Shown here: one piece after another, positions 58,452 to 62,856 of the stretch
Layout: each line of letters starts with the position of its first letter
Position numbering within the stretch: position 1 is the first letter of the stretch
Assembly: GCA_029882685.1 (NCBI GenBank)
Contig: JAOUKH010000001.1
Coordinates: 3,159-67,158 of the forward strand
Length of the DNA stretch: 64,000 nt
Reading direction: 5' to 3'
From: Cyclobacteriaceae bacterium
GTDB lineage: Bacteria; Bacteroidota; Bacteroidia; Cytophagales; Cyclobacteriaceae
Made by a program: the position numbers and the translations under genes
The notes under the pieces: generated by a model
Told to the model about the DNA's origin: nothing
The model's database searches: none
What the model saw: only the letters and a program-made list of their open reading frames with translations

Positions 58452-59510
58452 ATGACAAAGAAGAAAAAATATCTAGCAGTTGACGTTTTCTCAGGAGCTG
58501 GAGGGCTAAGTCTTGGGGCAATTAACTCAGGAATTGAAGTGATTCTAGCAGTTGAGAGAGATAAATATTCAGCCGAAACATTTAAGAGTAACCACCCTGA
58601 AACTAAAGTATTAAATGAAGACATCAATGATATTGATTTATCTAACATTAATATCGAGTCTCCCTTTATTTTATTTGGAGGGCCTCCTTGCCAAGGATTT
58701 TCATTGTCTAATACCAAAACAAGGAATAATGACAACCAGAATAACCACTTATTTAACAAATATTTCAAATGGGTTGAGACACTTCAACCAACTTGGTTCC
58801 TATTTGAAAATGTAGAAGGAATAGTTAGCTATAATGAGGGCAAAACAGTAGAACACATTCAATCACTTTTTGAATCAGTTGGGTACACTGTCAAAAAAGG
58901 TGTTCTTACTGCATCGGATTATGGAGTTCCTCAAGACCGAAACAGGTTTTTTATGATTGGGAACAACCAAGGCATTGACTTCACCTTTCCTGAAAAATTA
59001 GACCTTAAAGTATCCGTTAGTGAAGCATTGGGTGATTTGCCCAACTTAAATAATGGAGATTGTTATGACGAACAACCATATCAAATCAATAACGTGTCTA
59101 ATTATTCAAAATTGATGAGGGGTACTTCTAATTTGGCAACTCAAAACTACGTATCCAGAAATCAAGACTATGTAGTTGAGAGATATAGACATATCAAACC
59201 AGGTCAAAATTGGAAGGCCATCCCAGATCATTTAATGACTAACTACTCCAATAAAAACAATTGTCATAGTGGGATTTACAAACGATTAGACCCTACCAAA
59301 CCCTCAGTTGTGATATCAAACTATCGCAAGAATATGTTAATCCACCCTTTTGAAGATCGAGGACTATCCGTCAGAGAAGCTGCACGTCTTCAAAGTTTTC
59401 CTGACAATTTTAAATTTTCGGGGACACTTATGTATATTCAGCAACAAATAGGTAATGCCGTTCCTCCTTTAATGGCAGAAGCCATTTTCAGAAAAATACT
59501 TTCATATTAG
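58452..59510 (+). CDS. dcm: DNA (cytosine-5)-methyltransferase
   Basis: All canonical m5C motifs: I DVFSGAGGLSLG, IV GGPPCQGFS, VI FLFENVEG, VIII QDRNRFF, IX REAARLQSFPD, X GNAVPP. Confidence 0.95.
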   Translation: MTKKKKYLAVDVFSGAGGLSLGAINSGIEVILAVERDKYSAETFKSNHPETKVLNEDINDIDLSNINIESPFILFGGPPCQGFSLSNTKTRNNDNQNNHLFNKYFKWVETLQPTWFLFENVEGIVSYNEGKTVEHIQSLFESVGYTVKKGVLTASDYGVPQDRNRFFMIGNNQGIDFTFPEKLDLKVSVSEALGDLPNLNNGDCYDEQPYQINNVSNYSKLMRGTSNLATQNYVSRNQDYVVERYRHIKPGQNWKAIPDHLMTNYSNKNNCHSGIYKRLDPTKPSVVISNYRKNMLIHPFEDRGLSVREAARLQSFPDNFKFSGTLMYIQQQIGNAVPPLMAEAIFRKILSY

Positions 59511-59514
59511 CCTT

Positions 59515-61647: not shown

Positions 61648-62252
61648 AATCAGATTCAAAAATCATAATCATTGATGATCAGTTTAATCCAGATGATGAT
61701 CCTACATACATTGTTCTCAAGGAGAAATATGCGGATGTGTTGACATTCGTCTCATCTGTTGAGGCAATGAAGGAGTTGCCAAAATATCTAGACGACAAAA
61801 TCATAATACTTCTTGATTTGTCATTTCCTTCCAAAGAACCGGATGGACATAAGGTACTAGAGAAAATCAGAGAAGAAAATAAGTTAATTCCTGTAATTAT
61901 TTGGAGTGCGGTAAATGAGAATGAGGAAAGTTTTAGTGACCTAATTAACAATGATGCCTTTGGGTTCTTAAAAAGAGACGTATCTACGAAAGAAATATTG
62001 ACAAAACTTGAGGAAGCAGATATTTACCTGAATTCATCAGTAAGTGGTGCTTTGGAAAATTGGATTAAATCTCACCCTCAAGGCGATCAGGACAAACCAT
62101 ATATTATTTCTGTAGATGAAACCGAGCTGACTTTAAATGACCTGCTAAAAGAAGTCAGGCTTCAAACTAAACTCGGTCAGTCCTTTTCCAAAAAACTTAA
62201 TAAATTAACTATAGATCTTCTATTAAGAAAAAAAGAGAATCTGGATGACTGA
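61644..62252 (+). CDS. Receiver (REC) domain protein with unknown C-terminal module of about 80 aa
   Basis: CheY-like residues are all present: IIIIDDQ (D11, D12), ILLDLSFP (D58), VIIWSA (S88), GFLKR (K110). The start overlaps the upstream stop (ATGA). Confidence 0.75.
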   Translation: MKSDSKIIIIDDQFNPDDDPTYIVLKEKYADVLTFVSSVEAMKELPKYLDDKIIILLDLSFPSKEPDGHKVLEKIREENKLIPVIIWSAVNENEESFSDLINNDAFGFLKRDVSTKEILTKLEEADIYLNSSVSGALENWIKSHPQGDQDKPYIISVDETELTLNDLLKEVRLQTKLGQSFSKKLNKLTIDLLLRKKENLDD

Positions 62253-62856
62253 CCTAATTATAGCTTTTGATAACGAAGATTCTAAACTCGGATTTTTCTT
62301 TAATAGATGTGCGGAAATTATCACTGAATCAGTTAATGACACATGGAATTGCATCTCAATAGATTCGAGATCATTAAATGAAATCCATTTAGAAATTCGT
62401 ACAAGCCAATTTCAAGGGAATTTCGTTTTTGCATCCTTCACGCACGGTAGCGAATCTTCTTTGGTAGCGTCAGGAACATCATTTATACAAAGTCCAGTTG
62501 AACGAAATTACTTAGTAAATTCTTTTAGCTATTGCTTTGCTTGTCATACAGGTAAACTTCTAGGTCGTGAGCTTGTGGAGAAAGGAACTCACACGTTTAT
62601 TGGCTATTCAGATGAAGCTTCAATAGTTACCACATATATTGATTTGTTTGCTGAATGTGCAGTAGAGGGGTTATTGAGATTTTACAGTGGGTCAACAATT
62701 TTGGAAGCGTTCTTGCTTAAAAAAGAGAAATATGATGAGGAAATAGATAAATTGTATCAAGACGATTTCTTTGTAGCATCCATTCTCATGGATAATAGAG
62801 ATTGCCTGGTACTACATGGCAACAGAGATTTGTGCATTACTGATTTCACGTACTAG
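62245..62856 (+). CDS. Small clan-CD (caspase/metacaspase-like) cysteine peptidase candidate
   Basis: Strand-then-His-Gly FVFASFTHGSE (H67 G68) and strand-then-Ala-Cys SYCFACHTG (A99 C100). Compare caspase LSHG/QACRG and metacaspase SGHG/DSCHSG. Alternating beta-alpha pattern. 8-nt overlap with the REC gene. Confidence 0.55.
   Translation: MTDLIIAFDNEDSKLGFFFNRCAEIITESVNDTWNCISIDSRSLNEIHLEIRTSQFQGNFVFASFTHGSESSLVASGTSFIQSPVERNYLVNSFSYCFACHTGKLLGRELVEKGTHTFIGYSDEASIVTTYIDLFAECAVEGLLRFYSGSTILEAFLLKKEKYDEEIDKLYQDDFFVASILMDNRDCLVLHGNRDLCITDFTY

Follow-up and report, generated by a model that had tools for sequence, protein, structure and literature searches.

Kinase-like ATPases encoded beside DNA methylases have been described before. 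In a comparative study, kinases that combine HATPase_c_3, a new DHp domain (HEF_HK) and HATPase_c adjoin receiver-like Response_reg_2 proteins, with a C5 methylase gene upstream and an HNH_2 or Vsr gene downstream; these pairs were proposed to form a cytoplasmic two-component-like system that is tied to restriction-modification and derived from paraMORCs (Bellieny-Rabelo et al., 2021; PMC8011034). The paraMORC GHKL ATPases of restriction systems have C-terminal modules, nuclease or TIR, that can be swapped (Iyer et al., 2008; PMC2292703). The Ambrosia system of Pseudomonas aeruginosa (AbrR-AbrA-AbrB-AbrC-AbrD), validated as anti-phage in 2025, consists of an XRE regulator, an N6 methylase, a histidine kinase/Hsp90-like ATPase, a receiver bearing a helix-turn-helix of the winged type (wHTH) and a type IV HNH nuclease. 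Phage defence requires every one of its genes as well as the receiver Asp, infection induces its expression, a pre-methylated phage is not protected, and its two-component pair appears to control transcription (bioRxiv 10.1101/2025.09.30.679545). Here we characterize a related four-gene cassette in a stretch of 64,000 nucleotides (hereafter the window) from a Cyclobacteriaceae bacterium (assembly GCA_029882685.1, contig JAOUKH010000001.1, positions 3,159 to 67,158 of the forward strand). Its genes encode a C5 methylase, a dual-GHKL sensor kinase, a receiver protein and a small protein with a predicted caspase-like fold.

An earlier note on this DNA, made from the sequence alone, had presented the cassette as an undescribed, phosphorelay-based defence system. 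The core of methylase, dual-GHKL kinase and receiver was described in 2021 (PMC8011034) and its relative Ambrosia was validated in 2025, so that the word 'undescribed' holds only for the caspase-like partner, which seems new. No such partner is mentioned in the available parts of PMC8011034, whose neighbourhoods include unnamed orthologous groups, and a literature search found no paper mentioning one for a cassette of this kind. The DefensePredictor paper mentions HATPase and receiver proteins, but no link from that mention to the window cassette could be made. What appears to be new is the obligate clan-CD peptidase partner, and the DHp and receiver families are also distinct from those of the known relatives. 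The term 'phosphorelay' has to be dropped, as the genes encode a simple His-Asp two-component pair and not a multi-step relay.

Four genes in constant order

The cassette lies on the forward strand and comprises open reading frame (ORF) 1, a C5 DNA cytosine methyltransferase of 352 aa (58452-59510); ORF2, a dual-GHKL sensor kinase of 710 aa (59515-61647); ORF3, a receiver protein of 202 aa (61644-62252); and ORF4, a clan-CD-like protein of 203 aa (62245-62856). Read codon by codon in the window, the TAG of ORF1 is followed by a 4-nt gap and the ATG of ORF2, ORF2 and ORF3 share an ATGA overlap, and ORF3 and ORF4 overlap by 8 nt, exactly matching the coordinates and junctions first reported for them. 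Judged by their sequence relatives, these are real genes and not chance ORFs, since searches returned at least 1883 homologues for the kinase (E ≤ 1e-10) and 890 homologous cluster representatives for ORF4 (E ≤ 1e-3).

With the kinase alignment as seed, a scan of one genome per species gave 234 matches. The best 80 of these, together with three further lineages, form the set of 83 loci to which the counts below refer. Every locus with enough sequence has methylase, kinase, receiver and ORF4 in that order on a single strand, incomplete cases being cut by contig ends; the earlier note had staked its proposal on such co-location in other genomes, and the four genes are indeed together, in the same order, wherever the flank suffices. 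Gene calls made individually at three kinase members (Tenacibaculum maritimum, an environmental lineage and Bacteroides sp. 51) gave the same four genes in the same order. Tight junctions between receiver and ORF4 are kept throughout: the gap is no more than 10 nt in 99% of loci, and overlaps of 8 nt, the commonest case, occur at 31 loci, those of 4 nt at 17 and those of 1 nt at 13.

Residue conservation was assessed in alignments of 83 kinases, 83 receivers and 81 methylases (79 complete, with two rows gapped at motif columns), and in an alignment of 146 diverse ORF4 homologues, mostly 25-47% identical to the window protein. Apart from substitutions at Asp643 and Gly647 of the kinase, no complete aligned sequence lacks a catalytic residue of any of the four proteins.

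ORF4 has a predicted caspase-haemoglobinase fold

By sequence, ORF4 has no match in Pfam, NCBIfam, PADLOC or the PDB, where profile searches gave noise. Its relatives are nevertheless numerous: a word-indexed search found 15, and an exhaustive profile search found the 890 cluster representatives mentioned above, 310 of them at 1e-10. Each of the best 150 of the 890 is a stand-alone protein; nearly all measure about 200-220 aa, and a few are shorter and apparently truncated. ORF4 thus defines a sizeable family that lacks an entry in the profile libraries.

His67, Gly68 and Cys100 are the only invariant columns among the 146 homologues. In the window they lie in the motifs FASFTHG (His67-Gly68 codons at 62443-62448, forward strand) and YCFACH (Cys100 codon at 62542-62544). 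Peptidases of clan CD are recognized by a His-Gly motif, a spacer and an Ala-Cys motif, each following a hydrophobic block. Asp9, after strand 1, is also conserved, at what we take to be the position where metacaspases and gingipains place their S1 acid.

An AlphaFold model based on the alignment of 146 sequences reached a pLDDT of 97.7 and a pTM of 0.93. It shows a six-stranded alpha/beta sandwich in which the His-Gly follows strand 3 and the Cys follows strand 4 (strand ends at residues 65 and 98). This model supersedes one built from 16 close homologues, whose pLDDT of 64 and disordered core went with meaningless Foldseek matches. The top Foldseek match in the PDB is gingipain R (1cvr; E 4.9e-4, TM 0.59, probability 1.0), followed by caspase-4, separase, caspase-1 and a Bacteroides C11 peptidase, the probabilities of the top five being 0.96-1.0. 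Legumain and a bacterial caspase-like protein come lower, with flavodoxin-like folds among the weaker matches. Searched against a viral library, the model matched giant-virus caspase-like and clostripain-like proteins. Among sequence families, Peptidase_C25 was found below threshold in six of the 146 members (best E 0.0017) and no other family in more than two, while the window protein itself has no significant match to C14, C13, C11, C25 or CHAT.

The predicted structure makes ORF4 a new sequence family of the clan-CD (caspase-haemoglobinase) fold, with predicted peptidase activity. The assignment is credible because the dyad pattern is the classical clan-CD signature: the model has both the fold and a His-Gly/Cys dyad placed after hydrophobic strands. 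The His-Gly...Ala-Cys dyad and the clan-CD affiliation proposed from the bare sequence are in this way upheld by the model, the Foldseek matches and the invariant residues.

A canonical receiver with a tail of its own

The first 122 residues of ORF3 (61644-62009, forward strand) form a receiver domain with Asp11/Asp12, Asp58 (codon 61815-61817), Ser88 and Lys110. Residues 7-122 match PF00072 at E 4.3e-10, and a profile of the family matches PDB receivers at 2.8e-11. The window protein thus has all elements of a classical receiver, namely the acidic pocket, the phospho-accepting Asp, the Thr/Ser and the Lys. Across the family Asp12 and Asp58 never vary, and every sequence has Thr or Ser at position 88. 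Of 36 receiver members compared with Pfam, 32 match PF00072 and none matches PF19192.

The remaining 80 or so residues (123-202; 62010-62252, forward strand) form a conserved tail with the motifs E138-x-W140, L168, R172, G178 and LTIDLL. It belongs to no family in Pfam or by PDB profile, and no helix-turn-helix (HTH) or wHTH was detectable in the tails of the 36 members. The CheY-type residues and the unassigned tail were both anticipated in the earlier note. We propose that the tail is a module coupling ORF3 to ORF4.

A dual-GHKL kinase with conserved catalytic residues

The N-terminal domain of ORF2 (residues 1-150; 59515-59964, forward strand) is a MutL/Hsp90/MORC-type GHKL ATPase (HATPase_c_3) with Glu34, Asn38 and Asp67-x-Gly-x-Gly. 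Residues 30-144 match PF13589 at E 3.3e-25, and a family profile of the N-terminal 440 residues matches the GHKL domains of PMS1, MutL, HtpG, Grp94 and MORC2 in the PDB. Residues 9-226 match the NCBIfam BbrUII/HgiDII family (NF050001) at E 6.9e-20, with 71 bits against a cut-off of 550. Glu34, Asn38 and DxGxG are present in 82 of the 83 kinases, the remaining row being gapped. The middle region (residues 151-440; 59965-60834, forward strand) is strongly conserved across the kinase alignment, with the motifs YRDG..TPFAEY, GIDKRRWSGFF and TNRQDFV, and has no Pfam match at E ≤ 10 and no PDB profile match. By analogy with the paraMORCs (Iyer et al., 2008; PMC2292703), it is presumed to hold an S5-like transducer followed by a variable, coiled-coil-like linker.

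A DHp-like helical hairpin (residues 485-555; 60967-61179, forward strand) carries the putative phospho-acceptor His497 (codon 61003-61005). The HisKA-like stretch at 488-555 stays below the cut-off (E 0.03-0.044), so the DHp is atypical, and in the 83 kinases I, A or M, and not an acidic residue, comes next to His497 on its C-terminal side. PDB histidine-kinase chains align over residues ~490-709. The catalytic ATP-binding (CA) domain (residues 599-709; 61309-61641, forward strand) has N, G1, F and G2 boxes and matches PF02518 at E 4.1e-22 and the PDB kinases 5c93 and 4u7n at E ~5e-11. His497, Asn608, Gly645 and the GGxGxG of the G2 box are found in 83 of 83 kinases; Asp643 of the G1 box and Gly647 are found in 81 each, and the two substitutions at each position are the only ones at catalytic residues of the cassette. 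A conserved His beside a CA domain with all four boxes is what characterizes a classical two-component kinase.

No transmembrane segment was found in ORF2 (maximum Kyte-Doolittle value over 19 residues, 1.23), and the two Bergerat folds, His497 and soluble kinase core that had been read from the translation all find support in PF13589, PF02518 and the conservation pattern. Among the best 120 kinase homologues nearly all are 705-718 aa long, and every full-length one has both ATPase domains.

The methylase belongs to one of two specificity classes

The whole of ORF1 is covered by a match to PF00145 (E 2.3e-70). It also matches TIGR00675 (2.1e-63) and PADLOC MTase_II (7e-118), and has its catalytic Cys80 at codon 58689-58691. 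The FxGxG, PCQ and ENV motifs are present in all 79 complete methylases, in agreement with the description of ORF1 as carrying every m5C methylase motif. The methylases fall into two classes by their target-recognition domain (TRD), with 22% identity between classes, and this division matches that of the entire cassette into two deep clades.

No segment of the kinase switches with the methylase class, either as a hypervariable or as a TRD-like region. Only 12 class-specific kinase positions exist, mostly conservative, of which 11 fall in residues 1-400.

Comparison with known systems

Annotation with the defence profiles of PADLOC-DB 2.0.0, a check that the earlier note had called for, recognized the methylase, placed the kinase N-terminus weakly with restriction enzymes, and gave no match for ORF3 or ORF4. 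Matches for ORF2-4 were limited to REase_II (E 1.7e-11, kinase N-terminus) and MzaB. No nuclease domain was detected in ORF2-4, so the cassette does not pair its methylase with an endonuclease as a type II restriction-modification system does.

With the HEF_HK/Response_reg_2 pairs the cassette shares a soluble kinase of HATPase_c_3, DHp and HATPase_c, a receiver-like neighbour gene, a C5 methylase upstream and, at some loci, Vsr or HNH_2 downstream. The window kinase, however, has no PF19191 match even at E ≤ 10 on the isolated segment, and where the core His of HEF_HK is followed by Glu or Asp, His497 is followed by I, A or M. The window receiver also differs, being a canonical PF00072 domain without a PF19192 match. 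Ambrosia, which could be compared by gene description only, resembles the cassette in having a methylase, an HK/Hsp90-like ATPase and a receiver in that order in one operon with a restriction-modification flavour, and some relatives of the window cassette also have an upstream XRE gene (~17/83 loci) and a downstream HNH_2 gene. It differs in its N6-adenine methylase, wHTH receiver, obligatory XRE regulator and type IV HNH nuclease, in lacking a caspase-like protein and in being reported from Gammaproteobacteria only, whereas the window cassette has a C5 methylase, an unassigned receiver tail and an obligatory ORF4, and neither XRE nor HNH. The paraMORC, BbrUII and HgiDII proteins share with ORF2 a MutL/MORC-type GHKL domain that lies at the N-terminus and keeps its ATP-binding motifs, the pairing with a Dcm methylase and variable C-terminal outputs; in the window the output is a histidine-kinase core acting towards separate proteins, instead of a fused nuclease of restriction-endonuclease fold, a TIR or an HxH domain.

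Detocs reportedly pairs a TPR-sensor kinase with a buffer receiver and with an ATP-degrading receiver-PNP effector, and is said to lack a methylase, a GHKL sensor and a protease. The likeness would lie in His-Asp signalling for immunity and in an enzymatic effector under receiver control. Neither a TPR nor a PNP domain was found in any window ORF, and no PADLOC match was of that kind; the differing architecture attributed to Detocs at the outset is confirmed on the side of the window. ORF4 resembles the CHAT proteases of type III CRISPR and the gasdermin-activating proteases in its caspase-haemoglobinase fold, its His/Cys dyad and its proposed place downstream of a sensor. Unlike them, it is a stand-alone protein of 203 aa without a Pfam C14 or CHAT match or an adjacent gasdermin or substrate gene, and its control would come from a phosphorylated receiver instead of a nucleotide signal or a CRISPR complex.

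Spread and evolution of the cassette

The 80 scan loci come almost throughout from Bacteroidota, with a few from Treponema/Spirochaetes and one from Kapaibacterium. In Tenacibaculum maritimum, 24 genome-scale contigs carry an identical kinase, and the cassette is also present in Flavobacterium and Algibacter. A distant cassette lies on a 315-kb plasmid of Stenotrophomonas rhizophila; its kinase is 31% identical, and it includes an unannotated receiver-like gene of 212 aa and an ORF4 homologue of 226 aa (E 2e-9). Before an ORF4 homologue of 28% identity, the receiver gene again stands directly upstream, with an 8-nt overlap. The kinase is carried by five IMG/VR contigs, and a complete cassette is found among phage protein families in the 53.5-kb phage-like contig IMGVR_UViG_3300030393_000016 (L099, 6910-17606), where a tape-measure gene of 1449 aa (phrog_25337, 1138 bits) lies 2 kb away. 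Phages or prophages can thus carry the module. One short contig (L013, JAOZSQ010000102.1, 4.7 kb) assigned to a Thermoplasmatota archaeon metagenome-assembled genome bears a cassette whose kinase is 58% identical to that of the window; because the contig is short and the sequence Bacteroidota-like, this is probably a binning error and not an archaeal occurrence.

Mean identity within classes is 0.64 for the methylase, 0.67 for the N-terminal half of the kinase, 0.54 for the kinase core, 0.40 for the receiver and 0.31 for ORF4, which is the fastest-evolving part of the cassette. Over non-independent pairs, so that the Spearman coefficients are suggestive only, ORF4 identity follows that of the receiver (0.71) and the kinase core (0.70) and follows the methylase far less (0.27-0.35), and methylase identity tracks the N-terminal half of the kinase best (0.75). 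The latter co-variation can be explained by shared ancestry, because the methylase classes are the deep clades of the cassette.

Optional neighbours and exchangeable outputs

Neighbours were counted from the clustered flanks of the 83 loci. An XRE-type HTH gene resembling C-proteins lies 3-7 bp upstream of the methylase in the XRE-bearing loci counted above. Vsr occurs at 11 loci, directly after ORF4 in about eight, which argues that the methylase modifies the host genome constitutively. A McrB-like AAA_5 protein with DUF2357/PDDEXK_7 or with an unassigned 780-aa protein is found downstream in ~12 loci, extra Dcm genes in ~8 and an HNH_2 nuclease in 5, of which four (Flavobacteriaceae/Prevotella) have it directly after ORF4. 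AAA_15/AAA_21 with DUF3226, Schlafen/AlbA_2 and RhuM also recur, and Abi_2, AbiEii and RadC genes surround the three individually gene-called cassettes. About half of the loci, the window included, have the four genes only and none of the recurrent neighbours. The four genes are the core of the system, and the nucleases and regulators are accessories to it.

Two sets of loci illustrate the accessories. In L015, L017 and L018 (Flavobacteriaceae/Flavobacterium, ~8670-14100) the genes run XRE (absent in L017), methylase, kinase, receiver, ORF4 and HNH_2. Here ORF4 is interposed between the receiver and the nuclease of an otherwise Ambrosia-like gene set, which suggests that ORF4 can coexist with a nuclease effector. 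In L035, L038, L040, L044 and L082, from rumen or gut Bacteroidales, the region behind ORF4 holds further Dcm genes (one or two) as well as a McrB-like GTPase and its large partner. Methyl-cytosine-dependent restriction beside cytosine methylases is an odd pairing, which recalls the methylase and type IV nuclease of Ambrosia.

Sister dual-GHKL kinases are found on plasmids of Campylobacter (conjugative), Enterobacter, Burkholderia, Hymenobacter and Acaryochloris. They are followed by proteins of 340-400 aa, most with a recognizable receiver, whose C-terminal domain is unrelated to ORF4 (NPxCD, RFSxYYARQGxP; L088 8192-9214, L092 7147-8220, L095 7138-8304) that has no Pfam match. These proteins were considered as receiver-ORF4 fusions, an idea ruled out when the C-terminal domain failed the ORF4 profile; the domain is probably another unexplored output module. 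The part that follows the receiver seems to be an exchangeable output, because sister kinases and Ambrosia carry other modules at that place.

A proposed mechanism and its alternatives

From the features of the four proteins we infer a trigger, a phosphotransfer, a coupling of ORF3 to ORF4, a proteolytic step and its consequence for the cell. The C5 methylase would modify host DNA constitutively. At the input end of ORF2, a paraMORC/MutL-type GHKL ATPase would have had its classical nuclease or TIR output replaced by a DHp and kinase core. An infection- or DNA-linked cue would bring about ATP-dependent closure of the GHKL domain and autophosphorylation at His497, from which the phosphoryl group would pass to Asp58 of ORF3. 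The tail of ORF3 would then bind or release ORF4, which, through His67 and Cys100, would cleave cellular or phage targets. Our best explanation, held at about even odds, is that the cassette is a mobile module derived from restriction-modification whose proteolytic output serves phage defence or, selfishly, post-segregational killing. What is established are the identities of the domains, the intact catalytic residues, the strict linkage of the four genes, the fast evolution of the output proteins, mobility and a neighbourhood of restriction and defence genes; the closest relatives add a validated precedent for defence. The narrower proposal, that the phosphorylated receiver directly licenses a minimal caspase-like protease under a MORC/MutL-type DNA-clamp ATPase sensor borrowed from restriction enzymes, is tentative, and we lean somewhat against it.

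If it were correct, this would be the first His-Asp two-component pathway with a clan-CD peptidase as its output. Restriction-modification, two-component signalling and caspase-type control of cell fate would be joined in a single four-gene immune module, Bacteroidota-wide and carried by plasmids and phages. The mechanism as a whole, if it holds, would bring to bacterial immunity a caspase-like protease as a new output and aspartyl phosphorylation as a new kind of control. It would also provide a first functional handle on the large, uncharacterized class of kinases that derive from paraMORCs and accompany DNA methylases, and would bear on the recurring evolutionary link of MORC ATPases, DNA methylation and caspase-type effectors in eukaryotes. 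Culturable hosts with complete genomes (Tenacibaculum maritimum, Flavobacterium and Algibacter) and obvious point mutants make the hypothesis directly testable.

Several observations weigh against a proteolytic immune module of this kind. The cassette contains no recognizable substrate gene or toxin, and in the window genome it is flanked by housekeeping genes and not by a defence island. The tail of the receiver is without detectable homology, and the beta5 Lys of the receiver is not consistently conserved across the family. The sensor half of the kinase has no segment that tracks the methylase specificity class, and methylation gives the phage no protection in Ambrosia, whose two-component pair, moreover, seems to act on transcription. 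The four loci with HNH_2 immediately behind ORF4 suggest that ORF4 may be a regulator and not the terminal effector. The role of the methylase is the weakest link of the mechanism: the idea put forward earlier, that it marks self DNA while the GHKL module senses unmodified DNA, finds no support, given the unprotected methylated phage of Ambrosia and the lack of a class-switching segment in the kinase.

Alternatively, the kinase and receiver could be a transcriptional regulator as in Ambrosia, with a DNA-binding ORF3 tail and with ORF4 as an accessory processing or regulatory protease that, for example, removes a repressor or matures the methylase. Infection would then switch on the cassette together with adjacent type IV, HNH or McrBC nucleases. 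Ambrosia shares the methylase-kinase-receiver core and is induced on infection; the XRE genes upstream, the HNH_2 genes directly after ORF4 and the McrBC-like genes downstream fit such control, as does a 22-nt palindrome upstream of the window methylase. The palindrome is not conserved, however, the tails of the 36 receivers show no HTH or wHTH, and about half of the loci, again including the window, consist of the four genes with no nuclease within reach. With ORF4 obligate and nucleases optional, we consider transcriptional control of this type unlikely. The position of the methylase, always first and translationally coupled to the kinase, would suit a different role, in which the kinase monitors host methylation or the methylase protein and loss of the cassette triggers the protease, giving post-segregational killing as in selfish type II restriction-modification systems. 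The co-variation of the methylase with the N-terminal half of the kinase, the clustering of class-specific positions in residues 1-400, the carriage on plasmids and a phage-like contig, and the constitutive self-methylation implied by Vsr all agree with this addiction or epigenetic surveillance. It does not exclude defence, but the kinase has no TRD-like switch region and the co-variation can follow from the ancestry of the two deep clades, which leaves surveillance of this sort a rather improbable explanation.

Finally, ORF4 might not be a protease at all. At 203 aa it is minimal, without the usual second subunit or extra domains; its similarity to peptidases is marginal, as the sub-threshold Peptidase_C25 matches show, and flavodoxin-like folds occur among its weaker structural matches. 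It might then catalyse other chemistry (transpeptidation or ligation, or hydrolysis of a non-peptide bond), or serve as an adaptor that binds the phosphorylated receiver while the output lies elsewhere. Against this stand the restriction of its invariant residues to a clan-CD His-Gly...Cys dyad after hydrophobic strands, top Foldseek matches (probability 0.99-1.0) that are all clan-CD peptidases in two independent libraries, and the conserved Asp9 after strand 1, at what is presumably the S1-acid position of metacaspases and gingipains. We therefore think a non-proteolytic ORF4 very unlikely.

Surroundings of the cassette and other features of the window

The cassette is bordered on its parent contig by a small lipoprotein-like gene on one side and by the gene for ribosomal protein L31 on the other. 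No nuclease, integrase or transposase gene was found within 10 kb of it on that contig, which extends the earlier remark that none was seen nearby. The only other defence-type element close to the cassette in this genome is an MNT (NTP_transf_2)/HepT-like toxin-antitoxin pair about 2 kb downstream of ORF4, beyond the end of the window (L096, 15226-15839).

The 312-bp region upstream of the methylase gene is a divergent intergenic region and contains an inverted repeat (58285-58350; not strand-specific) with 22-nt arms, a 22-nt loop and 95% complementarity, ~100 nt before the methylase start. It was considered as a conserved operator and rejected as such, since no comparable or shared palindrome was found upstream of the cassette at other loci; the repeat is specific to the window and may be an operator of its own or the remnant of a mobile element. 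No XRE ORF was found upstream of the window cassette. A scan for sigma-70 promoters and terminators gave counts at chance level, with a consensus that does not fit Bacteroidota promoters.

An antisense ORF of 107 aa (58445-58768, reverse strand) lies within the methylase gene, and further antisense ORFs of 60-90 aa lie within ORF2 and ORF3; these are most likely chance ORFs in AT-rich sequence. Elsewhere in the window, two paralogous, very similar YceI-like genes of 179 aa each (54291-54830 and 55907-56446) stand on either side of an SprB-like repeat protein gene and are followed by a DUF5777 outer-membrane-like gene. The whole (54291-57361) looks like a small duplicated cluster for binding lipids or polyisoprenoids.

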